Shown in pieces: positions 6,810 to 59,916 of a stretch of 64,000 bases of DNA. The position numbers and the translations under genes were made by a program. The stretch comes from Holophagales bacterium UBA5066 (GTDB taxonomy: Bacteria > Acidobacteriota > Thermoanaerobaculia > UBA5066): contig DIAY01000284.1 in assembly GCA_002414905.1 (NCBI GenBank), positions 354 to 64,353 on the forward strand, in the 5' to 3' direction. The notes below the pieces were generated by a model. That model saw only the letters and a program-made list of their open reading frames with translations. It was not told where the DNA came from and did no database searches. Positions within the stretch are counted from its first letter, which is position 1, and every line of letters begins with the position of its first letter.

Positions 6810-6817
6810 GGGGCAGA

Positions 6818-34077: not shown

Positions 34078-34154
34078 TGGTACCCCCAGCGGGATTCGAA
34101 CCCGCGATCTTCACCTTGAAAGGGTGACGTCCTAGGCCACTAGACGATGGGGGC
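34078..34154 (-). tRNA. tRNA-Glu (anticodon TTC)
   Basis: The reverse complement GCCCCCATCGTCTAGTGGCCTAGGACGTCACCCTTTCAAGGTGAAGATCGCGGGTTCGAATCCCGCTGGGGGTACCA folds as a cloverleaf. The anticodon loop is CTTTCAA, the T-loop is GGTTCGAATCC, and CCA is encoded. Confidence 0.9.
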
Positions 34155-34277
34155 ACCGGGCAGGATCGCCTCTCGACGACGGCAGGAATTTACCACGAGC
34201 CGCCGGTGCCGGCCCGGTCGTGCCAGGATTCGAAGAACTGGCCGTTGGGCGGCTAAAGGAGTGTCCGGCGGAGAGAC

Positions 34278-34354
34278 TGGTGAGCCGTCCGGGACTCGAA
34301 CCCGGGACCCCCTGCTTAAAAGGCAGATGCTCTAACCAACTGAGCTAACGGCCC
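34278..34354 (-). tRNA. tRNA-Lys (anticodon TTT)
   Basis: The reverse complement GGGCCGTTAGCTCAGTTGGTTAGAGCATCTGCCTTTTAAGCAGGGGGTCCCGGGTTCGAGTCCCGGACGGCTCACCA folds as a cloverleaf. The anticodon loop is CTTTTAA, and CCA is encoded. Confidence 0.9.
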
Positions 34355-36409: not shown

Positions 36410-36451
36410 CGGTGGGCTCGGTCGCCACGGCGGTAGAATGGGCGGTTGAAG

Positions 36452-37390: not shown

Positions 37391-38182
37391 TCAGGGGGCG
37401 AGCGCGAGGATCGCCTCGAGGACGCCCCCTGCAATGGCCCGGGCCTTGTCGGAGATCGAAAAGCAGCTCTCTCTGATGAACCGCGGGTCGACGTCGGCGA
37501 TCTTGAAGCCCGCGGGCACCTCGAGTCCGGGGCGGATCATTCCGCGCACGACGCCTCCGATCGGAGCGGAGACGACGACCGCACCGATGGAGAGGAGCGG
37601 CTCTCCCGCCTCCACGGTGTCGCCGATGGCGCGGATCGGCGTGGCGACTCCGGCGCTCGGCGAGTGAACGACCCGCCGGGCACCCTGGCCCGCGATGAGG
37701 CCGGGCTCTCCGGTGTTCTGCTCGGCGCCTCCGGAGAGGATCACCCGCCCGAGGTCGTGACCGCGGTTCGTCTCGATGACGGCGTGGACGTCGCGCCCCG
37801 CCTCGAAGCCCGGGCCGAGCGCGACGACGACCGGGGCCATGTCGATCCGGGTACCGAGATTCTTCTTGGCGACGATCGCGTCGACGAGGGCGACGGGGGA
37901 GAGCCGTCCGAGGACCCGGCATTCCGGGTCCTCGAGAAGGGGAACCTCACCCGCTTTCCATTTAGCCGGCAGGTCCTGGCACCGGAAGGCGCGAACGCCC
38001 TCCACCGTGGCGAAGCCGTCGTACATCGCCTCGGAGAGGCTCACGGTCCTCCGGATGGCGAGCGGTGTCGCGGTTTCGAGCGCGACGACCCGGAAGCCCG
38101 AGCGGACGAGCCGCACGATGCAACCCGTGCCGAGGTCGCCCGCGCCCCGAACGACGACGAGACTCCCGCCGACGAGGCTCAT
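37391..38182 (-). CDS. yqeB: YqeB-family selenium-dependent molybdenum hydroxylase system protein
   Basis: The ATG overlaps the yqeC stop (ATGA). LVVVRGAGDLGTGCIVRLVRSGFRVVALETATPLAIRRTVSLSEAMYDG...DAIVAKKNLGT...HAVIETNRGHDLGRVI. 263 aa. Only the C-terminal part of track ORF 37391..39001 is real. Confidence 0.8.
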   Translation of the reverse strand: MSLVGGSLVVVRGAGDLGTGCIVRLVRSGFRVVALETATPLAIRRTVSLSEAMYDGFATVEGVRAFRCQDLPAKWKAGEVPLLEDPECRVLGRLSPVALVDAIVAKKNLGTRIDMAPVVVALGPGFEAGRDVHAVIETNRGHDLGRVILSGGAEQNTGEPGLIAGQGARRVVHSPSAGVATPIRAIGDTVEAGEPLLSIGAVVVSAPIGGVVRGMIRPGLEVPAGFKIADVDPRFIRESCFSISDKARAIAGGVLEAILALAP

Positions 38183-38955
38183 CGGGCGGGTTCCCGTCGG
38201 GCGGTGAAGAAATACCGCCCGCCGTCCTGCTCGCCGCTCAGGAGGACGAGGTCTGCATCGAGCGCCGAGAGCTGGCCGGGCGACGGGAGGAACGGGGACT
38301 CGTCGACCTTGTTGAGGAGGACGACGCGCCGGCCGTGAGTCCGTGCAAAGAGCCCTTCGGGATGGCGCGCGAGCGCCACGAGGTGGTCCCAGACGATCGG
38401 GTCTCCCGGCGCGCAGCCGGTGACGGCGGCGAAGCGTCCCGGGCGGTGGACCGTGCGCTCGTCCATCGGCCACCCGAGGGCGTCGAGGCCGATGACGCCG
38501 ACGACGAGATCGGTCTCGTCCGGCACGACCGGCTCGTACGGTGCTGGAGCCTTGATCGGAAGCCGCCTCGACCCGTCGGCCTCGACCAGGACGAGTCCCC
38601 ACGTACTTCGCAGCCGGGCGATGTGCGACGGATGGATGCCCTTCAGCTTCCCCGCCTCGTCCGCGGGCCGGGCGACGAGGAGCGTGATCCCGGCGAGCGG
38701 CTCCGGATCGGCCGGAACCTCCCCCGCGGCCGGAGGTTCGAGGTCGGGGCGGAAGACGATCCTCACGTCGTTCCCTTCGCCCCCGTTGCGCGTGTCGGCG
38801 AGCTGGGTCGTGGTCGTGACGAGGACCGGACGCCCGTCCGAAGCGAGCTCGCGGGCGAAGTGCAGCAGCAGGCTCGTCTTTCCGCCCGCGCCGACGAACG
38901 ACACGACTCCAGAGCCCCCGGGAAGCAGGGGAAGGAGGACGTCTGCGAGTCTCAG
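38179..38955 (-). CDS. yqeC: YqeC-family selenium-dependent hydroxylase accessory protein (P-loop)
   Basis: VVSFVGAGGKTSLLLHFARELASDGRPVLVTTTT...LVLVEADGSRRLPIKAPAPYEPVVP...VVLLNKVD. The start is unresolved: either CTG 38955 overlapping the xdhC stop (CTGA) or GTG 38904. Confidence 0.75.
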   Translation of the reverse strand: MRLADVLLPLLPGGSGVVSFVGAGGKTSLLLHFARELASDGRPVLVTTTTQLADTRNGGEGNDVRIVFRPDLEPPAAGEVPADPEPLAGITLLVARPADEAGKLKGIHPSHIARLRSTWGLVLVEADGSRRLPIKAPAPYEPVVPDETDLVVGVIGLDALGWPMDERTVHRPGRFAAVTGCAPGDPIVWDHLVALARHPEGLFARTHGRRVVLLNKVDESPFLPSPGQLSALDADLVLLSGEQDGGRYFFTARREPAR

Positions 38956-39983
38956 GACGCGCTTCGTCGCGCTCTCCCCGAGATCCCGGCATTCGGGACA
39001 CCGCGACGAACTGCCACGAGCTCGCCGACGATCGAGACCGCGAGCTCCTCGGGGGTCTCGGCGCCGATGTCGAGGCCGATCGGCGCGTGGACGGCCTCGA
39101 CCTTCGCCCGGTCGAAGCCGTCCGCGATCGCCTGCTCCAGGATGAGGCGGACTTTCTTCCGGCTCCCGATCATCCCCGCGTAGCGCCACGGCTTGCCGAG
39201 GACGGCACGGAGCGACTCGAGGTCGGCGAGGTGGCCTCGGGTGACGATGACGACGTAGGCGGAGGCATCCCAGGGGAACGCGTCGACAGCCTCCGTGTAG
39301 CCGCTCGGGAGGGTCTCCACCCCCGCCGGATACCGTTCCGGCGAAAGGAACTCGGCCCGGTCGTCTGCGACGGTGACGGTGAAGCCGACGGCGTCGGCCG
39401 CGGCGGCGACGGCGCGGCCGACGTGGCCGCCTCCGAGGACGAGGAGCCTCTCGGGCGGCAGGAGCGGGTCGTAGAAGACGCCGGCCTCCGCATCGAGGAG
39501 CGGCTTGCCCTGCTCGAGGAGGCGCCGCGCCGTCGCGGCGTCGGCGCCCTCGGGAGCCTCGGGGGTGAAGGCGCCCGTCGCATCGAAGACGGCGCTCTGC
39601 CCGGTCGCGGTGCGCCGGACGAGGACCGCCCGCTCGCCGCGGGAGAGAAGCTCCCGCGCCGCGGTGTAGGCGGCCTTCGACGCGACCGGCTCGACGAGGA
39701 TCCGGGCCGTCCCCCCGCAGACCATATCCGGCCCTTCGGCCGCCGTCCCGAGCTTTGCGACCTCGAGGTCGCGCGCCTCTCCGTCGGCGAGCGCCTCGCG
39801 GGCCGCTTCGAGGACGAGCGCCTCACCTCCGCCGCCTCCGACGGAGCCGGCGAGAAGGCCACCTCGTCCCACGAGCATCCAGGAGCCCGGGTGGCGTGGC
39901 GCCGAACCCTTCACCTGCATCACGGTGCAGAGGACGAGCGGCTCCCGGGCCGCGAGGAGGAGGTCGAGAAGGGCGAGGCTCAC
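38952..39983 (-). CDS. xdhC: XdhC/CoxI-family molybdenum-cofactor insertion chaperone
   Basis: The GTG overlaps the hydroxylase stop (GTGA). LVLCTVMQVKGSAPRHPGSWMLV...GGGGGEA...LLVLGGGHVGRAVAAAADAVGFTVTVADDR...VIVTRGH..D...YAGMIGSRKKV...HAPIGLDIGAETPEE. Confidence 0.85.
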   Translation of the reverse strand: MSLALLDLLLAAREPLVLCTVMQVKGSAPRHPGSWMLVGRGGLLAGSVGGGGGEALVLEAAREALADGEARDLEVAKLGTAAEGPDMVCGGTARILVEPVASKAAYTAARELLSRGERAVLVRRTATGQSAVFDATGAFTPEAPEGADAATARRLLEQGKPLLDAEAGVFYDPLLPPERLLVLGGGHVGRAVAAAADAVGFTVTVADDRAEFLSPERYPAGVETLPSGYTEAVDAFPWDASAYVVIVTRGHLADLESLRAVLGKPWRYAGMIGSRKKVRLILEQAIADGFDRAKVEAVHAPIGLDIGAETPEELAVSIVGELVAVRRGVPNAGISGRARRSAS

Positions 39984-42601
39984 GCCTTCTTCTTCCGGCT
40001 GTAGGGCGTCCCCGCGAGCGGCAGCTCCGTCCGGAAGACGCCGTCGCGGAGGAAATACGCGCCGGCGACGGCGGGGGCCGTCGGGATCGTCGCGATCTCG
40101 CCGAGGCCCTTGGCGCCCCTGGCGAGGGGCGAGAGGTTCTTCTCGACGATGATGGATTCGATGGGCGGGACTTTCGCCGCCTTGAAGAGGCCGAGCGTGC
40201 CGTACTTGACCTGCGGCTCACCCTCCTTCAGCGGGAAGTCTTCGGTCAGGGCGAAGCCGAGGCCCATGACGACGCCCCCTTCGATCTGCGACTCGACCTG
40301 GACCGGGTTGATCGCCCGGCCGATGTCGTGCGCGGCGACGACCTTCTCGAGCATCCCGTCGCCGTCGAGGAGGACGACATGGACGGCGTAGGAGTAGGAG
40401 ACGTGGCTCACGGGGTTCGGCTTGTCGGAGGCGAAGGGGTCGGTAACGCCTGCGAACTCGGCGTAGTACTCCTTCCCCTCGAGCGCCTCGAGCGTCGCAC
40501 CGTCGAGATCCTGCTTCAGCGCCCGGGCTGCCCGGCAGGCGGCCTCGCCCGTGAAGAGGGTCTGGCGGGAGGCCGTGGTCGTCCCGCTGTTCGGGGAGGT
40601 CGCGGTGTCGGGCTGGGCGACGGTGATCCTCTCCCACGGGAGCCCGGTGATCTCGGCGACGAACTGCATCAGGACGGAGGCGAGCCCCTGGCCCATGCAC
40701 GCGGCGCTCGTGTAGACGACCGCCTGCCCGTTCTCGACCTTCAGGCGGACCCGCCCGACGTCGGGGAGCCCGACGCCGATCCCGGCGTTCTTCAGCGCGC
40801 ACGCGATCCCCGCGTCGGGACGCTTCTCGCAGAGCTCCTTCACGGCGAGAAGGCATTCCTTCAAGGCCGTCCCCTGGTCGGTGATCTGGCCGTTCGGGAG
40901 AACGTCGCCGGGCCCGACGGCGTTGCGCCACCGGATCTCCCACGGGCTGACGCCCACCTCCTTCGCGAGGAGGTTCATGCACGATTCCATCGCGAAGCAC
41001 GACTGCGTGACGCCGAAGCCGCGGAAGGCGCCGCCAGGAGGGTTGTTCGTGTAGACCCCGGTCCCGATCATCTCGACGTTCGGAATCGTGTAGCCGCCCG
41101 CACCGTGCGTGCAGGCGCGCTGGAGGACCGGCCCGCCGAGCGAGGCGTAGGCGCCGGTGTCCTCGAGGATGTCTGCCTTCACCGCGGTGACCCGCCCCTC
41201 GGCATCGGCGGCGACGGTGTACTTCATCTCCATCGCGTGCCGCTTCGGGTGGACGCGGATCGACTCCTGCCGGTCGAGCGTCACCTTCGCCGGCGCCCCC
41301 GTCTTCCAGGCGAGAAGCGCGGCGTGATGCTGGACGATGAGGTCCTCCTTGCCGCCGAAGCCGCCGCCGACGTAGGCGCTGATCACGTTCACGCTCTCGG
41401 GTGCGACACCGAGGACGCCGACGATCCCCTTGTGGTCGTCGTAGATGCTCTGCGTTCCCGTGTAGACGGTCATCGTGCCGTCCTCGTGCGGGATCGCGAG
41501 GGCGCTCTCGGGCTCCATGAAGGCGTGCTCGGTCTCGGGGGTCCGGAACGTCTCCCTTATGACGTACGCCGCGGAAGCGATCGCCGCGTCCGGGTCGCCG
41601 CGCTTGAGGACCGTCCTGGCGAGGAGGTTCCCCTTCGGGTGGAGCTTCGGGGCGTCGTCGTCGAGCGCCCGCCGGGCGTCGACGAGGGGCGGAAGGACCT
41701 CGTGCTCGAGGCGGATCCGCTTTACCGCTTCCTTGGCGATCTCGCGCGTCTCGGCGGCGACGAGGGCGATCGCGTCGCCGATATAGCGCGTCTCCTCGCC
41801 GACGGCGATCATCGCCGGCCAGTCGTGGATGATGTGCCCCTGGTGCCTCTCGCCCGGGACGTCCTGGGCGGTCATCACGGCCACGACGCCCGGCATCGCG
41901 AGCGCCTCGCTCGCGTCGATCCCGAGGACCTTTACCCGTGCCTTCGGCGGGCGAAGGACAGCCCCGTGGAGCATCCCGGGGACCTTCATGTCGTCGACGT
42001 AGATGGCCCCGCCGAGGACCTTCTCGCGGGCATCGGCCCGGAGGATCTTCGCGCCGACGGAGAGCGGCACCGCGTGCTCGCCGGGGACCTCGCCCCCTTC
42101 ACGAAGGAGTCGCGCCGCGTCCTGGATCCCCTTCTCGATCTTCACGTACCCCGTGCAACGGCACATACTGAACTGGAGAGCCTTCTCGATCTCCTCGGAC
42201 GCCGGCTCCGGTTGGGCGTCGACGAGCCCCTTGGCCGTCATCACCATTCCCGGCATGCAGAAGCCGCACTGGACGGCGCCGGCGCTGGCGAACGCCCACG
42301 AGTAGACGTCCTTCTCCCGCTCCGAGAGACCCTCGACCGTGACGATGCTTTTTCCGGCGACCTTCTCCGTCGTCGTGAGGCAGGAGCGGGTCGGCTTGCC
42401 GTCGACGAGGACCATGCAGGCACCACATGACCCCTCGGAACAGCCGTTCTTCACCGAGGTGAGGTTCAGCTCCTCGCGGAGGAACGGCATGAGCTTGACG
42501 TCCTTGCCGGACGTGACCTCCTTCCCGTTCACGCGGAAGGTCTGGGCCAGAGGCTCGCCCGAAACCACGTCCTTTGTCCCTTCCACCTGCGTCGTCGACA
42601 T
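39980..42601 (-). CDS. xdhD: Fused [2Fe-2S]/molybdopterin hydroxylase of the XdhD / selenium-dependent xanthine dehydrogenase type (no FAD subunit)
   Basis: GGGAGGTGG precedes ATG 42601. The N-terminus carries CSEGSCGACMVLVDG and QCGFCMPGMVM...CRCTGY (two 2Fe-2S sites). A large aldehyde oxidase/XDH Moco domain follows (GGGFGGKE, AFRGFG). 873 aa. Confidence 0.85.
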   Translation of the reverse strand: MSTTQVEGTKDVVSGEPLAQTFRVNGKEVTSGKDVKLMPFLREELNLTSVKNGCSEGSCGACMVLVDGKPTRSCLTTTEKVAGKSIVTVEGLSEREKDVYSWAFASAGAVQCGFCMPGMVMTAKGLVDAQPEPASEEIEKALQFSMCRCTGYVKIEKGIQDAARLLREGGEVPGEHAVPLSVGAKILRADAREKVLGGAIYVDDMKVPGMLHGAVLRPPKARVKVLGIDASEALAMPGVVAVMTAQDVPGERHQGHIIHDWPAMIAVGEETRYIGDAIALVAAETREIAKEAVKRIRLEHEVLPPLVDARRALDDDAPKLHPKGNLLARTVLKRGDPDAAIASAAYVIRETFRTPETEHAFMEPESALAIPHEDGTMTVYTGTQSIYDDHKGIVGVLGVAPESVNVISAYVGGGFGGKEDLIVQHHAALLAWKTGAPAKVTLDRQESIRVHPKRHAMEMKYTVAADAEGRVTAVKADILEDTGAYASLGGPVLQRACTHGAGGYTIPNVEMIGTGVYTNNPPGGAFRGFGVTQSCFAMESCMNLLAKEVGVSPWEIRWRNAVGPGDVLPNGQITDQGTALKECLLAVKELCEKRPDAGIACALKNAGIGVGLPDVGRVRLKVENGQAVVYTSAACMGQGLASVLMQFVAEITGLPWERITVAQPDTATSPNSGTTTASRQTLFTGEAACRAARALKQDLDGATLEALEGKEYYAEFAGVTDPFASDKPNPVSHVSYSYAVHVVLLDGDGMLEKVVAAHDIGRAINPVQVESQIEGGVVMGLGFALTEDFPLKEGEPQVKYGTLGLFKAAKVPPIESIIVEKNLSPLARGAKGLGEIATIPTAPAVAGAYFLRDGVFRTELPLAGTPYSRKKKA

Positions 42602-42659
42602 GCACCACCTCCCTGGGAGATATCAGTCTAGGCCAGCGCGGGCCGGTTCGGAGCGGCCC

Positions 42660-43859
42660 TCAGCGGGCCACGGTGAGGATCGTCCCGATCTCCTCGGGGG
42701 AACGCCCGACGATGGCCTGGAAATGACCCCGGTCCGTCGCCCCTTCGGTAATCATGAGAAGAACGGTCTTGTCCGGCCCCAGGAGGCCGCTGTCGCGGAA
42801 CTCGGCTGTAGAGCCGTCGCCGTGGAGCGCGGCGAGCGTTCCGAGCGCGGCCGCCCCGGTTTCCCCGGCGACGACTCCCGCGTCCGCAAGCCCTCTCATT
42901 GCCTCGCGCGCCCGCTCATCTCCGATGGAGACCATCCAGTCCACTCCCGTCGAGACTCTCGGCCAGGCGACGGGCGAGGGGAGTCCGCAATTGAGGCCGA
43001 CCATGATGGAGCGGTGCGGCCCGGGGACGGCCGTCATCTCTCCCGCCCGCGCCGACACCTGGATGCAGTTCGCATCCGCCGGCTCCACGCCGACGAGAGC
43101 ACCCTTCCAGGGACGGCTCCGGTAGTAGCTCACGGCGGCCGCCATGAAGGCGCCGACCCCCATCGGGACGACGACGACATCCGGCGCGCCGATTCCCGCG
43201 GCCGCGAGCGCCTGCTCGATCTCCATGAAGATCGTCGTGTAGCCGTCGACGACCCGCCGGGGTGTCACGTCGTAGCCGGGCCAGGAGGTGTCGGAGATGA
43301 CGAGGCACTTGTCGCTCGCCTCTTCCGCGGAAAGGGCGACGGCGGCGTCGTAGTCGCCGTCGACGACGGTCACCTCGGCCCCCTCGTTCTGGATCGCGTG
43401 GATCCGGGCGGGGACCGTCCCGGCAGGGACGAAGATCCGGCACCCGAACCCGAGGAGGCGAGCCATGAAGGCGACCGCGCGACCGTGGTTTCCGTCGGTC
43501 GCCGCCGCCAGCGAGAAGGGACGGAGGTAGCCGATGCGGCGCGAGAGGTCGTTGATGTTCGCCCAGGGCTCCGGATCGAATCCGAGATGGTCGCAGAGCG
43601 CCCGGTAGGTCGCCCAGGACGCGCCGAGGATCTTGAAGCTCGGCAAGCCGAGCCTCTGCGTTTCCGCCTTCACCAGAACACGTCCCACGCCGTAGCGGTG
43701 GGCGAGCTCCGGACAGTCATAGAGAGTCGTGGCGCGGTACGCGGGCATTCGCCGATGGAACGTCCAGACCGAGGGGTCCGGAACCGGCCAGCGGGTCTCG
43801 GGTCTGGCGAGCGGGTTTCGGAGGAGCGTTGCCTCCGGGGAGAGGGTCGTGGCGTTCAT
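42660..43859 (-). CDS. dpaL: Diaminopropionate ammonia-lyase (YgeX type, PLP fold II)
   Basis: GGAGG sits 7 nt before ATG 43859. VLVKAETQRLGLPSFKILGASWA (PLP Lys), AATDGNHGRAVA, VVVPMGVGAF. Confidence 0.85.
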   Translation of the reverse strand: MNATTLSPEATLLRNPLARPETRWPVPDPSVWTFHRRMPAYRATTLYDCPELAHRYGVGRVLVKAETQRLGLPSFKILGASWATYRALCDHLGFDPEPWANINDLSRRIGYLRPFSLAAATDGNHGRAVAFMARLLGFGCRIFVPAGTVPARIHAIQNEGAEVTVVDGDYDAAVALSAEEASDKCLVISDTSWPGYDVTPRRVVDGYTTIFMEIEQALAAAGIGAPDVVVVPMGVGAFMAAAVSYYRSRPWKGALVGVEPADANCIQVSARAGEMTAVPGPHRSIMVGLNCGLPSPVAWPRVSTGVDWMVSIGDERAREAMRGLADAGVVAGETGAAALGTLAALHGDGSTAEFRDSGLLGPDKTVLLMITEGATDRGHFQAIVGRSPEEIGTILTVAR

Positions 43860-43882
43860 ATTTCAGCCTCCGGGAGTCGGGG

Positions 43883-44827
43883 TCAGGGGACGACGTGGGT
43901 ACCGGTCTTTCCGGCGAAGGCGAGGCTCAGGTGCGCGGGGTCGGTGATGATCGCCTCGCGGCCGCCTCCCTCGAGGAACGCGATGACGGCCTGGATCTTG
44001 GGGAGCATGCTCCCCGGCTTGAAGTGCCCCTCGGCGACGTAGCGTTTCGCCTCGGCGACCGTCATCCGGTCGACGTCGATCTGGTTCGGCTTTCCGAAGT
44101 TCAGGCAGACCTTCTCGACGGCCGTCGAGATGACGAGGAGCTCGGCGCCCAGCTGGCGCGCCAGGAGGCTCGAAGCGTGGTCCTTGTCGATGACCGCGGA
44201 GGCGCCCGTGAGGTTCCCGTCGGCATCGGCGACGACCGCGATTCCCCCTCCCCCCGCCGCCACGACGACGAAGCCGGCGTCGAGGAGGCTCTTCACGGCG
44301 TTGAGCTCGAGGATCGCCTTCGGGACGGGCGAGGCGACGACGCGGCGCCAGCCGCGCCCGGAGTCCTCGACGACGTCCCAGCCGTCCACCGCGCGGTGGT
44401 GGTCGGCCTGCTCCTTCGTCAGGAACGAGCCGATCGGCTTGTTCGGCTTCGCGAACGCGGGGTCCCCGCGGTCGACGAGACACTGCGTGACGACGGTGGC
44501 CGCGCCCTTTTCGATACCGAGTTTTCGGAACTCGTTGTACAGCGCGAGCTGGATGTGGTAGCCGATCGCCCCCTGCGTGTCCGCCACGCAGGAGTCGAGA
44601 GGAACCATGTGGAGCTCCTTCAGTGCGAGCTCGGAGCGGCGCAGGATGAATCCGACCTGGGGCCCGTTGCCGTGCGTGATGACGAGGCGCAGGTCGCCGT
44701 CCGCCAGGAGCGGCGCGACGTGCCGGCACGTCTGGGCGGCCGCCAGGTACTGGTCGGGGACGGTCTGGTGTTCCTTGTCGGTGATGAGCGAGTTGCCACC
44801 GATGGCGATGACGGCCGTCCTGGTCAC
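43883..44827 (-). CDS. arcC: Carbamate kinase (YqeA/ArcC type)
   Basis: GGAGGAG sits 6 nt before GTG 44827. AVIAIGGNSL...VITHGNGPQVG...VVAAGGGGIAV...AVIDKDHASSLLA. Confidence 0.9.
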   Translation of the reverse strand: MTRTAVIAIGGNSLITDKEHQTVPDQYLAAAQTCRHVAPLLADGDLRLVITHGNGPQVGFILRRSELALKELHMVPLDSCVADTQGAIGYHIQLALYNEFRKLGIEKGAATVVTQCLVDRGDPAFAKPNKPIGSFLTKEQADHHRAVDGWDVVEDSGRGWRRVVASPVPKAILELNAVKSLLDAGFVVVAAGGGGIAVVADADGNLTGASAVIDKDHASSLLARQLGAELLVISTAVEKVCLNFGKPNQIDVDRMTVAEAKRYVAEGHFKPGSMLPKIQAVIAFLEGGGREAIITDPAHLSLAFAGKTGTHVVP

Positions 44828-44894
44828 GTGAGTCTCCTCCTGTCGGCGCAGCCGGCGGCCGCGCGCTGTTTCCGGCGAAGAGAGCCGGTCCTGC

Positions 44895-46220
44895 TCAGAA
44901 CCGCTCCCAGAGGGCCGCGGCGAGCCGGCGGCTCTCGGCGGCGAGGGCGGCCTCGTCGAGGTCGAGCTCGAGCTTCCGGCCGTGCATCAGGACCCGGCCG
45001 CCGCAGATCGTCGTGTCGACGCTCGCCTGCGAGATTCCGTAGACGAGATGCCCGAGGACGGTCGAGTCGTTCAAAGGCGTCGGAGCGTGGTAGTCGACGA
45101 GGATGACGTCGGCCGCGGCCCCCGCGGACAAAGTGCCGATGGGGAACCCCCAGAGGGTCGAGGCGATCCTCGGGTTCTGGACGAAGAGCGCGCCCGTCAG
45201 CTCCATGAAGCCGCAGCTCGGGTTCTCCTGCTTCAGGTGCTGCGCCCAGAGGCCGACCCGAAGCTCCTCGAGCATGCCGACCGTCATCGCGTCGGTCCCG
45301 AGCCCGACGGGGACGCCGCGCGAAACCAGCCCGAGGACGTCCGTGATGCCGACGGCGTTGTTGAGATTCGACTGGGGGTTCGTGACGACCCAGGCTCCGC
45401 TCGCGGCGAGGAGGTCCTTGTCCGCGTCGTCGCAGTGGACGGCGTGGGCGGCGATGCTCCCGGCGCGAAGGATCCGATGGTCCACGAGTCTTTTCGCCGG
45501 GGTCTTTCCGTACTTCGTCCGGTTCGCTTCGACGTCGGAAGCGGCCTCGGCGACGTGGACGTGGAAGCCGATGCCGAGGTCCTGCCCCATCCGGGCCGCC
45601 TTCGCGAGCGTCTCGTCGGACAGCGTGAATGCCGCGTGGAGGCCGAAGAGGGCGCGCAGCTGCGGGTCGTTCGCCGCGGCGCACTCGCGAGCGAAGGCGG
45701 CGTTCTCCGCGAGGCCTTCCTCGGTCACGGCGGCGCCGTCGCGGTCCGAGACCTCGTAACAGAGGCAGGAACGAAGCCCCGTCTCCTTCACGGCCTTCGC
45801 GATTCTGCCGAGCGATCCTCTGATCGCTCCGGGGCTCGCGTGGTGGTCGACGAGGGTCGTCGTCCCCTTCCGGATCGCGTCGAGGAGCATCACCTTCGCG
45901 CTCACCTCGACGTCATCGAGGGAGAGCTTCCGGTCGAGGCGCCACCAGAGGTTCTCGAGAACCTCCTGGAAGCTCGCGCTCGGCGCGGCCTTCCCGAGGC
46001 CGCGCACGAGCGTCGAGTAGAAGTGCATGTGCGCGTTGACGAGACCCGGAAGGACGAGCTTGCCCCGGGCGTCGAGAACGCGATCGAAGGGGCCCGGGAT
46101 CTCCTCCGCCGGGGCGATCCGCGCGATGCGGTCCCCCTCGAGAAGGAGGGCCTGCCCTTCGAGGACCCGGCAGGGATTCCCGAAGGTGACGAGAGTGCCG
46201 TTTCGGATCAGGAGCCGCAT
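44895..46220 (-). CDS. ssnA: SsnA-family aminohydrolase (selenium/purine-cluster-linked amidohydrolase)
   Basis: GGAGG sits 6 nt before ATG 46220. MRLLIRNGTLVTF...LVLPGLVNAHMHFYSTLVRGL...FQEVLENLWWRLD...GTTTLVDHHASP...FHVHVAE. Confidence 0.85.
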   Translation of the reverse strand: MRLLIRNGTLVTFGNPCRVLEGQALLLEGDRIARIAPAEEIPGPFDRVLDARGKLVLPGLVNAHMHFYSTLVRGLGKAAPSASFQEVLENLWWRLDRKLSLDDVEVSAKVMLLDAIRKGTTTLVDHHASPGAIRGSLGRIAKAVKETGLRSCLCYEVSDRDGAAVTEEGLAENAAFARECAAANDPQLRALFGLHAAFTLSDETLAKAARMGQDLGIGFHVHVAEAASDVEANRTKYGKTPAKRLVDHRILRAGSIAAHAVHCDDADKDLLAASGAWVVTNPQSNLNNAVGITDVLGLVSRGVPVGLGTDAMTVGMLEELRVGLWAQHLKQENPSCGFMELTGALFVQNPRIASTLWGFPIGTLSAGAAADVILVDYHAPTPLNDSTVLGHLVYGISQASVDTTICGGRVLMHGRKLELDLDEAALAAESRRLAAALWERF

Positions 46221-46257
46221 CGGGACCTCCATTTCGAGAGAAGAGGGGCCTCGGGGG

Positions 46258-47715
46258 TCACCCGAGGCCGACCTGGGCGTTGAACTCCTCGATGAGCCGG
46301 TCGAAGTGGACGACCTCCTCCTCGAAGAGCTGGCGCCAGTATTCCGGGTCCCACTGGGCCTGGATCTCCTCGTAGGTCTTCCCCTGCTGCTCGACCCACG
46401 TGTAGTACTTCAGGTTGTGGATCGCCTTGCGGTCCTGATAGCTCAGCTCCTTGAAATAGTCGACGGACTGGCGCTCGAGGCTTCCGGCGGAGGTCCGCGC
46501 CGCGTCGATCGCCGTGAAGGGGCCGCGCTCGGCCGTCAGCTCCGCGAGGCGCGAGAGATACAGCTCCGCGCTGTCGGTGAAGACGGTCATGACGACGTCG
46601 TTCTCGTCGAGCTCCCAGTACTTCGCGGCCTTGATGGCCGCGAGGAGGTTGCAGATGCAGCTGATGCCGAGGAGGTCGAGCTTCCCGACGGCGTCGTCGG
46701 CGGCTCCGATCGCGACGAGGAACTCCCGGCCTGCCGGCTCGTTGAAGAGCCGGAGGAGGCGCATGCAGTCCTCGTCGTCGATGGCAGCCACGGCGTCGGT
46801 GCTTCTCGCGTTGTGGACCCAGGGGACGTGCTTGTCGCCGATTCCCTCGATCCGGTGCCCTCCGAAGCCGTTCATGAGAAGGGTGGGACACTGGAGGGCC
46901 TCGGTGGCGACGGTCTTCATTCCCGGGAACTTCGTCTTCAGGTAGTCGCCCGCGGCGATCGTTCCCGCGCTGCCGGTCGCGCTGATCCAGGCTGCGAGGC
47001 GCGCCTTCGGCCCGCGCACCGCGGCGTAGGCCTCCTCGACGGCGGGGCCGGTCACGTTGTAGTGCCAGATCGGGTTTCCGAACTCGTCGAACTGGTTGAA
47101 GATGACGTTAGTCGGGTCGTTCTTGAGCTCCCAGCACTTGTCGTAGATCTCCTTGACGTTGCTCTCGCATCCCGGAGTCGCGATGACCTCGGCCCCGATC
47201 TCGCGAAGCCAGTCGAAGCGCTCCTGGGACATCTCCCGGGGGAGGATCGCGACGGAGTGGCAGCCGAGGATCGCCGAGTCGAACGCGCCGCCGCGGCAGT
47301 AGTTCCCGGTCGACGGCCAGACGGCCTTGTGCTTCTCGGGGTCGAACTCACCGCTGACGAGGCGGGGTACGAGGCAGGCGAACGCCGCGCCGACCTTGTG
47401 GGCGCCGGTGGGGAAGTACTTCCCGACGAGCCCTACGATCCGTGCCTTCACGCCGGTGATCTCCTTCGGGATCTCGAGGTAGTTCGGTCCGCCGAAGAGG
47501 CCGGTCTCGTGGTCGTTCTTCCAGGTGATCCGGAAGAGGTTCGCCGGGTCGACGTCCCAGAGGCCGACCCCCTCGAGCCGCTTCTTCTGAGCCTGAGGGA
47601 TCAGCTCCGGATCCCGCATCTGCCTGAAGGTCGGGATGACGATCCCGCGCTCCCGGCAGCGCCTGGCCGTCCGCTGCCGGACTTCCGTGTCGATGGTCTT
47701 GACGATGCGCGACAT
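46258..47715 (-). CDS. Fold-type II PLP-dependent enzyme (Trp-synthase-beta / cysteine-synthase superfamily), 485 aa, function unassigned
   Basis: ATG 47715 lies 11 nt after the ygeW stop. FPTGAHKVGAAFACLV (candidate PLP Lys), WPSTGNYCRGGAFDSA, ISATGSAGTIAAGDYL (Gly-rich phosphate loop). A ~120-aa helical C-terminal extension. The upstream 744 codons of track ORF 46258..49947 are an out-of-frame artefact. Confidence 0.7.
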   Translation of the reverse strand: MSRIVKTIDTEVRQRTARRCRERGIVIPTFRQMRDPELIPQAQKKRLEGVGLWDVDPANLFRITWKNDHETGLFGGPNYLEIPKEITGVKARIVGLVGKYFPTGAHKVGAAFACLVPRLVSGEFDPEKHKAVWPSTGNYCRGGAFDSAILGCHSVAILPREMSQERFDWLREIGAEVIATPGCESNVKEIYDKCWELKNDPTNVIFNQFDEFGNPIWHYNVTGPAVEEAYAAVRGPKARLAAWISATGSAGTIAAGDYLKTKFPGMKTVATEALQCPTLLMNGFGGHRIEGIGDKHVPWVHNARSTDAVAAIDDEDCMRLLRLFNEPAGREFLVAIGAADDAVGKLDLLGISCICNLLAAIKAAKYWELDENDVVMTVFTDSAELYLSRLAELTAERGPFTAIDAARTSAGSLERQSVDYFKELSYQDRKAIHNLKYYTWVEQQGKTYEEIQAQWDPEYWRQLFEEEVVHFDRLIEEFNAQVGLG

Positions 47716-47726
47716 GACGCGGCTCC

Positions 47727-48920: not shown

Positions 48921-48941
48921 GGCGTTCTCCTTCGTTTCTGC

Positions 48942-50291
48942 TCAGTCGTGATGAGGATGGAACTGTCCCCGACGCACGCCGCCGTCGACGAGCCCGCCGT
49001 CCGTGACGACGGTCTCCCCGTGGACGAGGACGTGGCGAAGGGCAAGTGTCGATGTGAAGCCCGGGAAGGCGTCGTACGCGTCGCTCTCGGTTCCACGGAC
49101 GGGGCGCTCGGGCCCGTTCGGGTCGAGGACGACGACGTCGGCATCGTGGCCGGGGCGAAGCGCCCCCTTCCGGCTGTCGAGCCCGAGGCGGGCGGCGGGG
49201 TTCCGCGAGAGGAGGAGCGACACCTCGGCAGCGGCCCGGTCCGGGTTGTCCCCCCAGAGCTTCCAGGCGTGGTGGAGAAGGCCGCCGACGCCGGGGAGCC
49301 CGTTTGCAACGGTCCGGATGTCCTTGCCGTCCCAGTCGTCCTTGTCGGCCTTCCGGAAGGCGCAGTGGTCCGTCGCGAGGAGGTCGAAGACCCCCTCGCG
49401 CGCGAGCTCGCGGAAACGGGCCCTCTCGCCGCGGAGCGGGGGAGAGCAGAGCCAGCGGTGGCCGTCGGGGCGGTCGAGCCAGCCCTCGTCGAGCCAGAGG
49501 TACTGGGGGCAGGTCTCGCAGGTGACGTCCTGTCGCTCGCGCGCCGCGCGGATCCTCTCCGCGGCGGCGACGGTCGAGACGTGGACGACGTGAAGCGGGA
49601 CGGCGCAACGCTGTGCGAGGTCGAGGAGAGCCTCGACCGAGGCGACCTCGGCCGCTTCCGGCCGGAGCCTTGCGTGGGAGGAGGCACGGGAGAGGTCGAG
49701 GGCGGAGGAGTCGACCGATTCGAGAAGTGCGTCGTCCTCGCAGTGGAGGAGAAAGCGGACGCCGAGTGGCCCGAGGCGCCGGAACAGCTCCTCGAGACGG
49801 GCCTGGTCGGAGAAGAGCCCGGCGCCACGGTACGTCGTGTAGAGCTTGAACGTGCGGTGGCCCGCACGGACGAGCTCCTCCATCTCCTGCCAGTCGGCCG
49901 GCTCGAATCGCGTCGGCGTCAGGTGCCACGCGACATCGACGTGGCACTTCCCCTCGGCGCGAGAGTGAACCGTGCGGAGCGCGTCGCCGAGCGACTCGCC
50001 GGAGCCCTGCGTGACGAAGGTGCAGAGCGTCGTGACGCCGTTTTTCACGGCGACACGGGTGCCGCTCTCGTAGTCGTCGGCGAGCTCGAATCGGCCGATC
50101 CGGTCGGCCACGTGAACGTGGAAGTCGACGAGTCCGGGGAGGACGAAGCAGTCGGAGGCGTCGACGACACGGTCCACAGGGCCGAGGCCGCGGCGGCCGA
50201 CAGCGGAAACACGCCCCTCCTCGAGGAGGAGGTCCGTCGCCTCGACGCGGCCTTCGGAGGCCACCCGGCCGTTCCTGACGAGGGTTCTCAA
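48942..50291 (-). CDS. hyuA: Cyclic amidohydrolase of the D-hydantoinase/dihydropyrimidinase (HyuA) type
   Basis: GGAGA sits 7 nt before the in-frame TTG 50291. LVRNGRV...VLPGLVDFHVHV...GVTT...FKLYTTY...HCED...HVVHVST...TDHC. 449 aa. Confidence 0.8.
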   Translation of the reverse strand: MRTLVRNGRVASEGRVEATDLLLEEGRVSAVGRRGLGPVDRVVDASDCFVLPGLVDFHVHVADRIGRFELADDYESGTRVAVKNGVTTLCTFVTQGSGESLGDALRTVHSRAEGKCHVDVAWHLTPTRFEPADWQEMEELVRAGHRTFKLYTTYRGAGLFSDQARLEELFRRLGPLGVRFLLHCEDDALLESVDSSALDLSRASSHARLRPEAAEVASVEALLDLAQRCAVPLHVVHVSTVAAAERIRAARERQDVTCETCPQYLWLDEGWLDRPDGHRWLCSPPLRGERARFRELAREGVFDLLATDHCAFRKADKDDWDGKDIRTVANGLPGVGGLLHHAWKLWGDNPDRAAAEVSLLLSRNPAARLGLDSRKGALRPGHDADVVVLDPNGPERPVRGTESDAYDAFPGFTSTLALRHVLVHGETVVTDGGLVDGGVRRGQFHPHHD

Positions 50292-50319
50292 TCGTGTCTC
50301 CTGCCGTCTGGGCGAAGGC

Positions 50320-51201: not shown

Positions 51202-51244
51202 CGGGGTCCTCCCGTGACCCGTTCGTCGAGAGAGGCCGTGGGGG

Positions 51245-52645
51245 TCATGCCTCGGCCTTCGCCGACGCGAGCTTGCTCTCCGAAGCCGCGGCGTCGACAC
51301 CCTGGAGGTGGTTGAAGAAGGCGTTCAGCGCGACCGCGACGATCGAACAGAGAAGGATACCGCTGTGGAGGAGCGGGCTCAGCGCTTTCGGCAGCTGGTC
51401 GAAGAACTTCTCGGCGACCAGCGGGATCATCCCGAAGCCGATGGAGAGGGCGACGATGTAGAGGTTCAGGCGGTTCTTCGCGAAGTCGACGCCGCCGAGG
51501 ATCCGGATTCCGGTCGCGCAGACCATGCCGAACATGACGATCCCGGCGCCCCCCAGAACGAACTGGGGGACGGAGGCGACGATGACGGCGAGCTTCGGGA
51601 CGAGGCCGAGGGTGAGAAGGATGACGCCGCCGAGGGCGGTGACCCAGCGGCTCTTCACGCCCGTCACCCCGACGAGGCCGACGTTCTGCGAGAACGAGGT
51701 ATACGGGAAGGTGTTGAAGATGCCGCCGATCAGGGTGCCGAGACCGTCGACGCGCAGGCCGTCGGAAAGGTGTTTCTGGCTGATCTCCTTGCCGACGATG
51801 CTGCCGACGGCGAGGAACATGCCGAGCGACTCGATCATGACGACGACCATGACCATGCACATCGTCAGGCAGGCGACGAGGTTGAACGACGGCATGCCGA
51901 ACTGGAAGGGGTAGACGACGGCGAACCAGCTCGAGGTCGCGAGGCCGGAGAAGCTCACCTTGCCGAGCGCGATGGCGATGAGCATCCCGAGGACGAGCCC
52001 CAGCAGGACCGAGATGTTCGAGAGGAAACCCTTCACGAACTTCGTGATGAAGAGGATGAAGACGAGGACGATCCCGGCGACCGCGAGGTGGAGCGGCGCT
52101 CCGTAGGCCGGGTTCGGGATCATCGGACCGGCGAGGTCCGCGGCATTCCTGATCATCGGGTTTCCGCCGGCGGCCCAGTTCACGCCGACGCCCATCAGGG
52201 AGATGCCGATGATGGTGATGATCGAGCCGGTCACGACGGGCGGGAAGAGCGGAAGCATCCGGCTGATGAGCGGTGCGACGAGGATGCCGAAGATGCCGGC
52301 AACGATGACGGCTCCGTAGATCCCGAGAAGTCCGATCTCCGGGTTCGTCGCCATGACGATCATCGGGCTGACGGCTGCGAAGGTGACCCCCATCATCACG
52401 GGGAGGCGGATGCCGAACCGCCAGACGCCGATCGACTGAACGAGGGTCGCGATACCGCACGCGAAGAGGTCCGCGTTGATGAGCATCGCCATCTGGTCCT
52501 TCGGAAGCTTCAGCGCCCCGCCGACGATGAGGGGGACGGCGACGGCGCCCGCGTACATGACGAGGACGTGCTGGAGGCCGAGGAGGATCAGCCGGGTCGG
52601 CGGCAGGACCTCGTCGACCGGGTGAATGGCGTTCTGGTTTGCCAT
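51245..52645 (-). CDS. NCS2-family nucleobase:cation symporter (xanthine/urate permease type)
   Basis: LILLGLQHVLVMYAGAVAVPLIVG...ADLFACGIATLVQ...GVTFAAV...FPYTSFSQNVGLVGVTGV... are typical NCS2/NAT motifs. 466 aa. Confidence 0.85.
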   Translation of the reverse strand: MANQNAIHPVDEVLPPTRLILLGLQHVLVMYAGAVAVPLIVGGALKLPKDQMAMLINADLFACGIATLVQSIGVWRFGIRLPVMMGVTFAAVSPMIVMATNPEIGLLGIYGAVIVAGIFGILVAPLISRMLPLFPPVVTGSIITIIGISLMGVGVNWAAGGNPMIRNAADLAGPMIPNPAYGAPLHLAVAGIVLVFILFITKFVKGFLSNISVLLGLVLGMLIAIALGKVSFSGLATSSWFAVVYPFQFGMPSFNLVACLTMCMVMVVVMIESLGMFLAVGSIVGKEISQKHLSDGLRVDGLGTLIGGIFNTFPYTSFSQNVGLVGVTGVKSRWVTALGGVILLTLGLVPKLAVIVASVPQFVLGGAGIVMFGMVCATGIRILGGVDFAKNRLNLYIVALSIGFGMIPLVAEKFFDQLPKALSPLLHSGILLCSIVAVALNAFFNHLQGVDAAASESKLASAKAEA

Positions 52646-52660
52646 GTTCTCTCCTCGGAC

Positions 52661-55984: not shown

Positions 55985-56024
55985 GACGACCTCCTCGGGC
56001 AGCGGATCGTTTCGCGGGGCTACT

Positions 56025-57590: not shown

Positions 57591-57861
57591 ATCGTCCTCC
57601 GGAAGGTTTGCGCTTCAGGCTCATCTGTCGGGATGGAGTTCAAGGGCGTTGGACCCGTGGGGTCCTGCGGGCTGGAGAGGGTGATGGGGGAGGTGGTCCT
57701 GCGGCTCACCGACGGCGTGGGGTGGGGAAGCTCGCCGGGGAACGCGACCGCGTTTGAGGGGAATCCGGGAGCCGCCGGTGCGATCGCGCGGGCCAGGCTT
57801 CTGTTGACCTTCGGATTCCGGGGGTTGAGAGAGCAGGCGTTCGATCTCACGTCCGCCCTGA

Positions 57862-57889
57862 AATCTATGCCTGAATGTCAGGATGTCAA
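57862..57889 (-). promoter_or_regulatory. Sigma70-like promoter candidate for the 14-gene operon inside an AT-rich island
   Basis: The minus strand reads TTGACA-16 nt-TAGATT. The -35 hexamer is part of a direct repeat TGACAT-CC-TGACAT. The surrounding ~65 bp are strikingly AT-rich in a ~70% GC window. It lies ~270 nt upstream of the M20 start. Confidence 0.45.
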
Positions 57890-57901
57890 TAAAATTCTGT
57901 G

Positions 57902-58498
57902 CTAGTCAGATAATTTATTTACCATGCGGCTTGTCGCAGGCTCCAGATCTGATCGAACGTCTATATCGCGTACAATGCCGGGATCATCGCTCTTTAGCAG
58001 TACGAGTTCCGACGCGTGCCTGGCCAGAATGGACCTTGCACCGGCGTCCCCGGTGAGTCTGAGGATTTCCGGGAGAAGCACCCCTGCGAAGCCCACCGGG
58101 TGGCCTCTGCGCCCGCCGAAGGACGGAGCGACCAGAAGCGCGCCTTCCTTCAGCCTTCGGACGACTGCCCCGACCGTTTCGGGCCTGACGAAGGGCATGT
58201 CGGCCAGAGCCACGACCCATCCGTCCGCCGTGGAGGCGTTCGAGACGCCGAAGGCGAGGCTTGCACCCATCCCTTCGCTGGCTCCCGGGAAGGGAAGGAC
58301 TTCGGCCCCCTCGGCCCTCAGGAGCGCCTCGAGCGGGAGGTCGCCGGGACGTACGACGGCGAGGAGCCGATCGACGGCGCTCCCGAGGGAGCGCGCCGAC
58401 CGGACCCCGACAGGCGTCCCGTCCTCGAGCAGGGCGAGGAGCTTCCGTCCGCCGAAGCGGGCGCCGGCCCCCGCCGCGAGGAGGATGCCGGCGATCAT
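57902..58498 (-). CDS. mocA: MobA-like nucleotidyltransferase, MocA/YgfJ type (molybdenum cofactor cytidylyltransferase)
   Basis: ATG 58498 gives MIAGILLAAGAGARFGGRKLL...EGMGASLAFGV...VALADMPFV...GRRGHPVGF. 198 aa. The upstream 45 codons of the track ORF overlap the purA 3' end and are unlikely to be coding. Confidence 0.75.
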   Translation of the reverse strand: MIAGILLAAGAGARFGGRKLLALLEDGTPVGVRSARSLGSAVDRLLAVVRPGDLPLEALLRAEGAEVLPFPGASEGMGASLAFGVSNASTADGWVVALADMPFVRPETVGAVVRRLKEGALLVAPSFGGRRGHPVGFAGVLLPEILRLTGDAGARSILARHASELVLLKSDDPGIVRDIDVRSDLEPATSRMVNKLSD

Positions 58499-59861: not shown

Positions 59862-59916
59862 CGCGCGATTCTACCCGGCGGCGAAAGAACCAGCCGAATG
59901 CGAGAATTGCCGACCG

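Follow-up and report, generated by a model that had tools for sequence, protein, structure and literature searches.

What is broken down by the products of 14 genes packed on the minus strand of an acidobacterial contig, by which route, and is each of these genes accounted for by that route? The genes run from 57590 down to 37391 (about 20 kb) in a stretch of 64,000 nucleotides, called here the window, from Holophagales bacterium UBA5066 (assembly GCA_002414905.1, contig DIAY01000284.1, positions 354 to 64,353); they are numbered g1 to g14 in the direction of transcription. Proteins identical to theirs are found on a contig of 84,958 nt from a wastewater metagenome (ENA ERZ965221), and their mates in 90%-identity clusters come from Thermoanaerobaculia or Holophagales metagenome-assembled genomes (MAGs).

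The reading proposed here, with a probability of about 85%, is that the 14 genes form one transcription unit and encode the whole reductive pathway of urate degradation in an anaerobic wastewater acidobacterium of Thermoanaerobaculia/Holophagales type. It is drawn from sequence comparison with homologues whose biochemistry has been published. A preliminary description of the window, made from its letters only, had recognised a self-contained purine catabolic module built around a molybdenum cofactor (Moco) enzyme that lacks flavin adenine dinucleotide (FAD) and is marked by YqeB and YqeC; the gene set matches the published urate pathway.

The gene set and the published urate pathway

The core pathway was identified genetically in 2023. 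Its reductive route through 2,8-dioxopurine was solved biochemically in 2025 in Escherichia coli, Clostridioides difficile and Clostridium sporogenes (Li et al., Life Metab, PMC12507026; Liu et al., bioRxiv 10.1101/2025.04.24.650524), and both studies are summarised in a commentary by Percudani (PMC12990295). Urate is first converted to 2,8-dioxopurine, either by XdhD-YgfM (E. coli) or by the FAD-less, SelD-dependent XdhAC/DOPDH (C. sporogenes). YgfK, a separate 2,8-dioxopurine reductase (DOPOR), then dearomatises the ring with NAD(P)H. Ring opening by SsnA gives ureidomethyl-hydantoin, from which HyuA forms 2,3-diureidopropionate. YgeW and carbamate kinase turn one ureido group into ATP, YgeY hydrolyses the other and YgeX forms pyruvate. 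The order in which YgeW acts is disputed between the two published schemes and is listed as open in the commentary. The statement of the preliminary description that most steps were poorly defined, and that the locus could serve as a template for resolving them, is out of date since two groups have solved the pathway; for the same reason the locus opens no new question on anaerobic urate degradation.

Family labels were tested against the curated NCBIfam cut-offs, and Pfam was also scanned. Identities to E. coli K-12 were obtained by BLASTP against the proteins of its purine region (Table 1).

Table 1. Features of the operon and of its borders, in the direction of operon transcription. Positions are those of the window; scores in bits are followed by the family cut-off where one applies. 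aa, amino acids; NTP, nucleoside triphosphate; PLP, pyridoxal phosphate.
Feature	Position	Strand	Basis	Identity to E. coli K-12 protein
MocA-like NTP transferase	57902-58498	-	PF12804, 1.1e-33; TIGR03310, 89 vs 186
Sigma-70-like promoter, TTGACA-16-TAGATT	57862-57889	-	Consensus scan, 10/12 matches
Putative 5' leader, ~270 nt	57591-57861	-	Between promoter and g1
g1, divergent YgeY-like M20 metallohydrolase, 521 aa	56025-57590	-	M20_dimer (Pfam); YgeY models NF009555/TIGR03526, 197 and 175 vs 321, covering aa 164-519 (profile 88-397)	34% (YgeY; aa 164-521, partial alignment)
g2, YgfK, Fe-S flavoprotein, 1107 aa	52661-55984	-	TIGR03315, 887 vs 835	38% (YgfK; 1039 aligned positions)
g3, NCS2 permease, UacT type	51245-52645	-	TIGR03173, 532 vs 414	57% (UacT, urate:H+ symporter); 28% (XanQ, xanthine symporter)
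g4, Tsx-like outer-membrane beta-barrel channel, 293 aa	50320-51201	-	Signal peptide; C-terminal Phe
g5, HyuA-like cyclic amidohydrolase, 449 aa, TTG start	48942-50291	-	D-hydantoinase model, 269 vs 393	34% (HyuA; full length)
g6, YgeW knotted carbamoyltransferase	47727-48920	-	NF005538, 653 vs 453	66% (YgeW)
g7, PLP enzyme, 485 aa	46258-47715	-	Pfam PALP domain only; directly after ygeW
GC-rich 9-bp hairpin, weak T tail	46247-46269	-	Terminator-like scan; spans g7 stop codon, just before ssnA
g8, SsnA aminohydrolase	44895-46220	-	NF005540, 488 vs 444; TIGR03314, 460 vs 455.5	33% (SsnA)
g9, carbamate kinase	43883-44827	-	NF009007, 402 vs 266	48% (YqeA)
g10, diaminopropionate ammonia-lyase, YgeX type	42660-43859	-	NF006058, 308 vs 276	35% (YgeX)
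g11, fused 2Fe-2S/Moco enzyme without FAD domain	39980-42601	-	TIGR03311, 1314 vs 830	25% (XdhD)
g12, XdhC-family Moco insertion/maturation factor	38952-39983	-	NF045664, 272, and TIGR02964, 125, both below cut-off
g13, YqeC	38179-38904	-	TIGR03172, 171 vs 73; start GTG 38904, or CTG 38955/38928	36% (YqeC)
g14, stand-alone YqeB, 263 aa	37391-38182	-	TIGR03309, 339.5 vs 220	51% (C-terminal half of YqeB)
RpiR/MurR-family regulator (HTH_6 + SIS)	36446-37366	+	Pfam and NCBIfam matches; convergent with operon

Nine products pass the cut-off of their family: YgfK, the NCS2 permease, YgeW, SsnA, carbamate kinase, the diaminopropionate ammonia-lyase, the TIGR03311 enzyme, YqeC and YqeB. The names that these had received in the preliminary description stand, except for the name XdhD given to the TIGR03311 enzyme. 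The M20, HyuA-like, XdhC and MocA-like proteins named there are clear homologues that score below the curated cut-offs; the product called a porin matches no family, and the PLP enzyme matches PALP only. With respect to pathway membership, the operon encodes a Moco reductase of the DOPDH type (TIGR03311, with the Val/Thr pair described below), both the dearomatising reductase YgfK and SsnA (above their cut-offs), and HyuA, YgeW, M20 and YgeX enzymes, of which the HyuA-like and M20 proteins lie below the equivalog cut-offs.

The flow proposed here transfers to the operon, by orthology, the steps that the 2025 biochemistry established for homologues. For uptake, urate would pass the Tsx-like channel g4 in the outer membrane and then the UacT-like symporter g3 in the inner membrane. 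Its 6-oxo group would be removed by g11, the cofactor of which would be matured by XdhC, YqeC and YqeB and probably also by the MocA-like protein encoded upstream. The ring of the resulting 2,8-dioxopurine would be reduced with NADPH by YgfK (g2); SsnA (g8) would open the six-membered (pyrimidine) ring of dihydro-2,8-dioxopurine to give ureidomethyl-hydantoin, and the HyuA-like enzyme (g5) would open the hydantoin to 2,3-diureidopropionate. One ureido group would be phosphorolysed by YgeW (g6) to carbamoyl phosphate, used by carbamate kinase (g9) to form ATP; the other would be hydrolysed by the M20 enzyme (g1), and 2,3-diaminopropionate would be converted by YgeX (g10) to pyruvate and 2 NH3.

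The uptake by an outer-membrane channel and an NCS2 permease had already been proposed in the preliminary description and agrees with the Tsx-like fold of g4 and the UacT-like sequence of g3. The same applies to the later steps, i.e. ring opening by SsnA and HyuA, decarbamoylation by the M20 enzyme, ATP formation through YgeW and carbamate kinase, and the YgeX reaction, all of which match the 2025 pathway. Its early steps have to be replaced: YgfK, presented there as the electron partner of the hydroxylase, acts in the published work as a separate 2,8-dioxopurine reductase, and the Moco enzyme, presented as activating the purine by redox chemistry, removes the 6-oxo group of urate reductively.

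Two of the products required closer comparison. The M20 enzyme g1 has the metal motifs HxD, GRGxxD and EED visible in its sequence; a search of PDB sequences gave no usable match. Because it lies below the YgeY cut-off, whereas canonical YgeY proteins encoded by two related loci (L055 and L049; loci are denoted here by L numbers) reach 528-591 bits, g1 is a divergent relative of YgeY. In related clusters, the upstream part encodes either a protein of the g1 type or a canonical YgeY. From this alternation and from its presence in the cluster, g1 is presumed to be a ureido-group hydrolase and the functional equivalent of YgeY.

The channel g4 has itself neither a Pfam match (E <= 0.01) nor an NCBIfam match, and PDB sequences gave no usable match for it either. 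Among its homologues, 7 of 35 match PF03502 (Channel_Tsx; best 4.6e-7), and some are annotated as Tsx. Its AlphaFold2 (AF2) model, with a predicted local distance difference test (pLDDT) of 86, is a beta-barrel. The best fold match in PDB is Tsx (1TLW; E = 3.9e-8, template modelling (TM) score 0.64-0.75); the E-values of the next-ranked fold matches are about 50-200 times higher and their TM scores below 0.5. The fold and the matches of the homologues indicate a distant Tsx-like, substrate-specific channel and not a general porin, so that the earlier label holds for a beta-barrel outer-membrane protein and not for a porin. Like E. coli Tsx (1TLW; PF03502), which is its best structural match, g4 is a beta-barrel of similar size; unlike it, g4 lies below any Pfam threshold, the sequence identity between the two being about 10%. 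From the genomic context, its substrate would be a nucleobase (urate) rather than a nucleoside. A literature search found no paper on a Tsx-like channel or on Acidobacteria in the urate pathway.

The molybdenum enzyme and selenium

The core enzyme g11 had been named XdhD. As an XdhD orthologue it is ruled out: it scores 209 bits against TIGR03313, the XdhD family (cut-off 1102), it shares only the quarter of its residues given in Table 1 with E. coli XdhD, and the operon contains no YgfM-like gene for an FAD subunit. It belongs to TIGR03311. Its architecture is that of Desulfovibrio gigas aldehyde oxidoreductase, the next-closest solved relative being selenium-dependent nicotinate dehydrogenase. 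A fused, FAD-less architecture is also that of C. sporogenes XdhAC/DOPDH (Liu et al., bioRxiv 10.1101/2025.04.24.650524).

Residues of g11 were mapped by phmmer alignment to rat xanthine dehydrogenase (XDH), the numbering of which matches the bovine one in these segments. The catalytic residues are kept (bovine E802, R880, F914 and E1261 correspond to E419, R454, F529 and E835 of g11), and two positions are substituted, bovine F1009 by V610 and A1078 by T676. The substitutions F1009V and A1078T/S are those that distinguish DOPDH (Liu et al., bioRxiv 10.1101/2025.04.24.650524). Mapping of XdhD Glu606, highlighted by Li et al., was uninformative, this residue belonging to an XdhD-specific insertion that has no counterpart in g11.

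The UacT-like permease and the V610/T676 substitutions favour an entry reaction that converts urate to 2,8-dioxopurine, and g11 is likely a DOPDH-type reductase. That it is instead a selenium-dependent xanthine or hypoxanthine dehydrogenase that makes urate, the reductive step being carried out elsewhere or by the same enzyme, is quite improbable. Although the catalytic residues kept in g11 are common to true XDHs and the NCBIfam title of TIGR03311 is 'selenium-dependent xanthine dehydrogenase', the Val/Thr pair matches the published DOPDH signature and the fused, FAD-less architecture matches that of XdhAC, shown to be a DOPDH. In C. sporogenes, xanthine enters the pathway only by way of a separate XDH, while the operon here has a single Moco enzyme, and a nucleoside-catabolism cluster is found in the same window; yet the permease is UacT-like and not XanQ-like, and all downstream enzymes need 2,8-dioxopurine and not xanthine.

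The genes of YqeB and YqeC adjoin that of g11, lying downstream of g11 and XdhC and coupled to them in translation. Only selD-positive genomes are reported to encode YqeB, and the C. sporogenes DOPDH, studied as the enzyme purified from a selD mutant, was found to be SelD-dependent, with a labile selenium cofactor that is not selenocysteine (Liu et al., bioRxiv 10.1101/2025.04.24.650524). From YqeB, YqeC, the membership of TIGR03311 and these published homologues, we infer that g11 is selenium-dependent.

As the only other redox protein of the operon, YgfK might also pass electrons to the FAD-less g11; this is a second and weaker reading of its role, beside that of 2,8-dioxopurine reductase.

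Several points weigh against the urate reading as a whole. Its enzymatic steps are assigned by homology, several of them at only 33-38% identity to the E. coli proteins, and four of the proteins are below the curated cut-offs, as said above. The V610/T676 signature is not universal, the homologue encoded by L049 having Asn at the first position, and the title of TIGR03311 names another substrate, xanthine. The operon contains no ferredoxin that would serve g11 as electron donor. Pfam scans of essentially all other genes of the window and of its right flank found neither selD nor Moco biosynthesis genes in the 64 kb or in the 10 kb past the right end.

Transcription, flanking genes and relatives

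Minus-strand coding is unbroken from about 57600 to 37391 in a frame plot of the GC content at third codon positions (GC3). An independent gene call of the source contig agrees for the four genes that it covers (M20, 521 aa; YgfK, 1107 aa; permease, 466 aa; MocA-like protein, 198 aa); raw lists of open reading frames (ORFs) are noisy because the window has 69% GC. The single tight block of 14 genes reported in the preliminary description is thus borne out. Successive gaps within the operon are 40, 15, 43, 28, 21, 11, 37, 67, 23 and 58 nt. Their range of 11-67 nt had been given correctly, as had two of three 4-nt start/stop overlaps, which are certain: 39980-39983 (GTGA), where the GTG start of g12 overlaps the stop codon of g11, and 38179-38182 (ATGA). 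The third, CTGA between xdhC and yqeC, would exist only if yqeC started with CTG at 38955; GTG 38904 is the first canonical start codon of yqeC and leaves a gap of 47 nt. The start codon is ambiguous: the YqeC profile starts one residue upstream of this GTG, which points to a non-canonical CTG (38955 or 38928) that would be coupled to the stop codon of xdhC. Shine-Dalgarno sites of GGAG/GAGG type are found ahead of 11-12 of the 14 starts, in keeping with an earlier count of nearly all genes.

Between 36.3 and 59 kb, the consensus scan detected exactly one sigma-70-like site, upstream of the operon, where shuffled sequence would give about 0.1-0.5, and none inside the 20-kb operon. The site lies in a patch of 45% GC (window, 69%), and its hexamers align with those of the closest Holophagales relative, L001 (TTGACA/TTGACT and TAGATT/TAGCTT); the single AT-rich promoter island noted before is therefore retained. 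A riboswitch or other structured RNA in the leader was considered and rejected: the leader has no relevant Rfam match (gathering threshold and E <= 10), its folding energy is no better than that of shuffles (z = +0.79), and its sequence is poorly kept in relatives.

The 14 genes could be co-directional and yet belong to several transcription units, e.g. with the maturation genes apart or with a break after g7. This is improbable. The E. coli counterparts belong to several operons, on one strand or the other, but the gene order found here is kept in three relatives. The consensus scan is blind to promoters of other types; within its reach, there is no site within the 20 kb and only one upstream. 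The gaps of 58 and 67 nt, together with the 9-bp GC hairpin at the g7 stop codon, count against a single unit in that they could hide internal regulation. However, no gap exceeds 67 nt, three junctions overlap or nearly so and no strong T-tract terminator is present; the hairpin could be a partial terminator, an attenuator or an mRNA stabiliser. A single transcription unit remains the preferred reading.

The 3' end of the operon lies 24 nt from the convergent gene of the RpiR/MurR-family protein. Homologues of this protein, 55-76% identical, adjoin the cluster in about 10 Acidobacteriota loci, and it is a candidate regulator of the operon. At the other border, the MocA-like gene ends 13 nt before the promoter, immediately before it as previously indicated, and has the same position in L001. 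Its product is probably a Moco cytidylyltransferase; the name mocA is to be read with the score below the TIGR03310 cut-off in mind. In the region 58533-61449, the next gene upstream of mocA is purA, likewise on the minus strand, and both genes probably share a transcription unit. ORF 59473-61449 overlaps purA by 389 nt, and the source gene call gives a protein of 510 aa, so that the true start must be later. A gene of histidine ammonia-lyase diverges from purA, and urocanase is encoded about 7 kb past the right end of the window (L082:3137-4819).

Farther away, at a distance of about 28 kb, co-directional genes at 2773-9561 (plus strand) form a nucleoside-catabolism cluster that could feed purine bases to the urate operon. 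Their products are a phosphopentomutase-like metalloenzyme, a NupC-type nucleoside transporter, purine nucleoside phosphorylase, cytidine deaminase, a TRZ/ATZ-family deaminase (guanine/adenosine-deaminase-like) and pyrimidine nucleoside phosphorylase. A cyclic-nucleotide/c-di-GMP signalling cluster follows at 9608-16094; it encodes two proteins that bind cyclic nucleoside monophosphates, one of them fused to GGDEF, a receiver protein and a hybrid of HisKA, receiver and adenylate/guanylate cyclase. Genes of tRNA-Glu(UUC) and tRNA-Lys(UUU) are found at 34078-34354 (minus strand), and after them two ORFs, 34597-35415 and 35412-36365, that have no family match.

The gene order of the operon recurs in three Acidobacteriota MAGs. 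It is identical for all 14 genes in L002. In L003, a gene of a threonine-synthase-like PLP enzyme occupies the hyuA slot (L003:7530-8735), the rest of the order being kept. In L001, neither hyuA nor this gene is found between the Tsx-like gene and ygeW (L001:8627-8797), the rest being intact; hydantoin opening must there be encoded elsewhere or done differently. The one-operon design, called unusual in the preliminary description, is common to these three relatives and is thus a feature of the lineage and not a singular event. Some clusters of Acidobacteria and Bacteroidota encode a YgfK-like protein of about 677 aa that covers the N-terminal 400 profile positions only (L049:2978-5011; L030 and L061), next to a TIGR03311 enzyme (977 bits), YgeW, g7, YgeY and carbamate kinase; the YgfK architecture appears to be split or truncated in them.

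According to the published descriptions, the clusters of C. sporogenes and C. difficile share with this locus the fused FAD-less Moco enzyme, the YqeB/YqeC markers, YgfK, SsnA, HyuA, YgeW, M20 and YgeX, and a carbamate kinase coupled to YgeW for ATP. The locus differs from them by its host, which is an environmental diderm acidobacterium and not a gut Firmicute, by the inclusion of uptake and cofactor maturation in one operon, and by the Tsx-like outer-membrane channel, the divergent 521-aa M20 enzyme, the additional PLP enzyme g7 and the adjoining RpiR-type regulator. The E. coli region ygeW-ygeX-ygeY-hyuA-yqeA / yqeBC / mocA-ygfK-ssnA-ygfM-xdhD-xanQ...uacT encodes the same enzyme families (33-66% identity). 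In E. coli, however, XdhD (TIGR03313) acts with the FAD subunit YgfM and NADH, whereas the enzyme here is of TIGR03311 and without YgfM; the genes are in several divergent units with the sigma-54 activator YgeV; YqeB is fused to an XdhC-like domain, whereas XdhC and YqeB are encoded here by separate genes; and ygeX fills the slot after ygeW, the E. coli region having no homologue of g7.

The PLP enzyme that follows ygeW

The preliminary description had left g7 unassigned, and with reason: beyond its generic domain, the protein fails all cysteine-synthase cut-offs (cysK, 103 bits vs 351; cysM, 50 vs 394). Its AF2 model (pLDDT 80) has a core of CysK/CBS type, and its best fold matches are 25-27% identical. 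Throughout the family there is no variation in the Schiff-base lysine (GAHK107V), in the S-T-G-N loop for the carboxylate or in the G-S-A-G-T loop for the phosphate. The protein thus resembles the family of CysK, CBS and beta-cyanoalanine synthase by its fold-type II PLP core, its PLP lysine and both conserved loops. It differs from this family by the low identity, by scores far below the cut-offs, by its catabolic genomic context and by helical extensions of about 90 N-terminal and 100 C-terminal residues that are absent from CysK.

Homologues of g7 that are 67-91% identical are found in at least eight phyla, including Acidobacteriota, Bacteroidota, Ignavibacteriota, Verrucomicrobiota, KSB1, Cloacimonadota and Aminicenantes. 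The family is essentially one 50%-identity cluster, and no canonical cysteine synthase is found among its 150 best representatives. Within a set of 80 genome loci, 66 have enough upstream sequence, and in 43 of these ygeW lies directly upstream of g7 in the same orientation; most of the other loci have ygeW, or another carbamoyltransferase with a carbamate kinase, nearby. The gene context was counted in the 34 loci that have full 10-kb flanks, and 33 of these are purine clusters (at least two other pathway families). YgeW and a Moco enzyme are encoded in 28 of the 34 each; SsnA, an M20 enzyme and a threonine-synthase-like PLP enzyme in 27 each; YgfK or a PreA-like reductase in 23; YgeX in 3 and YqeB/YqeC in 3. 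Two of the loci, L055 and L049, were annotated in full and proved to encode variants of the urate pathway.

The pair formed by YgeW and g7 also links the window to purine clusters of Bacteroidota, Ignavibacteriota, Verrucomicrobiota, KSB1 and Aminicenantes MAGs that are still uncharacterised (L055, L052, L027 and L080, among others). Identities are 65-72% for YgeW, 67-73% for g7, about 55% for SsnA and about 40-47% for the HyuA-like enzyme; MocA and XdhC are likewise common to them. These clusters differ by a two-subunit XdhA-like Moco enzyme, a PreA/PydA-like reductase instead of YgfK, a canonical YgeY, a threonine-synthase-like PLP enzyme instead of YgeX, and the absence of YqeB/YqeC within 10 kb. 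The threonine-synthase-like (ThrC-like) enzyme is absent from the window and is found in L003, L004-L010, L013 and L055 (L055:3397-4629); where a cluster has no YgeX, this enzyme may stand in its place.

Could g7 be a housekeeping enzyme of sulfur or amino-acid metabolism, such as a cysteine synthase, that is present by chance, or a redundant second diaminopropionate ammonia-lyase? Either is rather unlikely. Source databases name g7 'cysteine synthase' and its nearest solved structures are CysK and CBS, but against a housekeeping role stand the failure of every cysteine-synthase cut-off, the two extensions, the single tight cluster free of canonical cysteine synthases and the purine context in nearly all loci, usually right after ygeW. 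Redundancy would agree with the absence of YgeX from 31 of the 34 fully flanked loci, where g7 could replace it; however, a second PLP enzyme is encoded in most g7 clusters (ThrC-like in 27, YgeX in 3), which makes g7 look like an added step and not a replacement. The idea that g7 merely replaces YgeX is weakened by the same observation. A role in selenium metabolism, e.g. in selenocysteine formation, was rejected as the main idea, most g7 clusters having no YqeB/YqeC within 10 kb.

A literature search found no paper on this PLP family, and neither of the two 2025 pathway papers mentions it; g7 lies outside both published schemes. One analysis by sequence similarity network took PF00291 as the marker of YgeX, and g7 would also match PF00291. 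As a tentative proposal, less probable than its contrary, g7 is a ninth enzyme of reductive urate degradation that has gone unrecognised, at work in environmental bacteria from many phyla and coupled in function to YgeW. Fold-type II PLP enzymes require a free alpha-amino group; since g7 follows ygeW, its proposed substrate is the amino-acid product of YgeW. The enzyme would act on a free alpha-amino acid released by YgeW (albizziin or diaminopropionate), by beta-elimination or beta-replacement. Most plausibly, it would lyse 3-ureidoalanine (albizziin) to urea or ammonia and aminoacrylate, which would yield pyruvate, and this activity would pull the thermodynamically weak YgeW phosphorolysis forward. 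Family members such as DcsD use ureido-type nucleophiles, so that a ureido leaving group is chemically plausible for g7. Confidence in this substrate, assigned from gene context and fold type, is modest, and one feature of the operon tells against it: a YgeY-like enzyme and YgeX are both encoded, so that an albizziin beta-lyase is not strictly needed.

The locus is a variant of a known system: it comes from a new phylum, is laid out as a single operon and has a Tsx-like channel, a divergent M20 enzyme and a neighbouring regulator of RpiR type. It extends the complete urate pathway linked to selenium markers to wastewater Acidobacteriota; the pathway had been defined in gut Firmicutes and Enterobacteria. 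With one promoter ahead of a channel, a permease, eight enzymes and three maturation factors, its design is unusually compact and handy for heterologous expression, e.g. in uricolytic probiotics. Its most interesting part, and the one element that merits follow-up, is g7, an extraordinarily conserved neighbour of ygeW in purine clusters of at least eight phyla that neither published scheme accounts for. This enzyme bears on which ureido group is removed by YgeW and may bear on the stereochemistry of the intermediates, both of which are listed among the open points (PMC12990295). If the role proposed for g7 is true, it would support the order in which YgeW cleaves the 2-ureido group first, would explain how an unfavourable phosphorolysis is pulled forward and would define a widespread variant of the urate pathway outside the gut.

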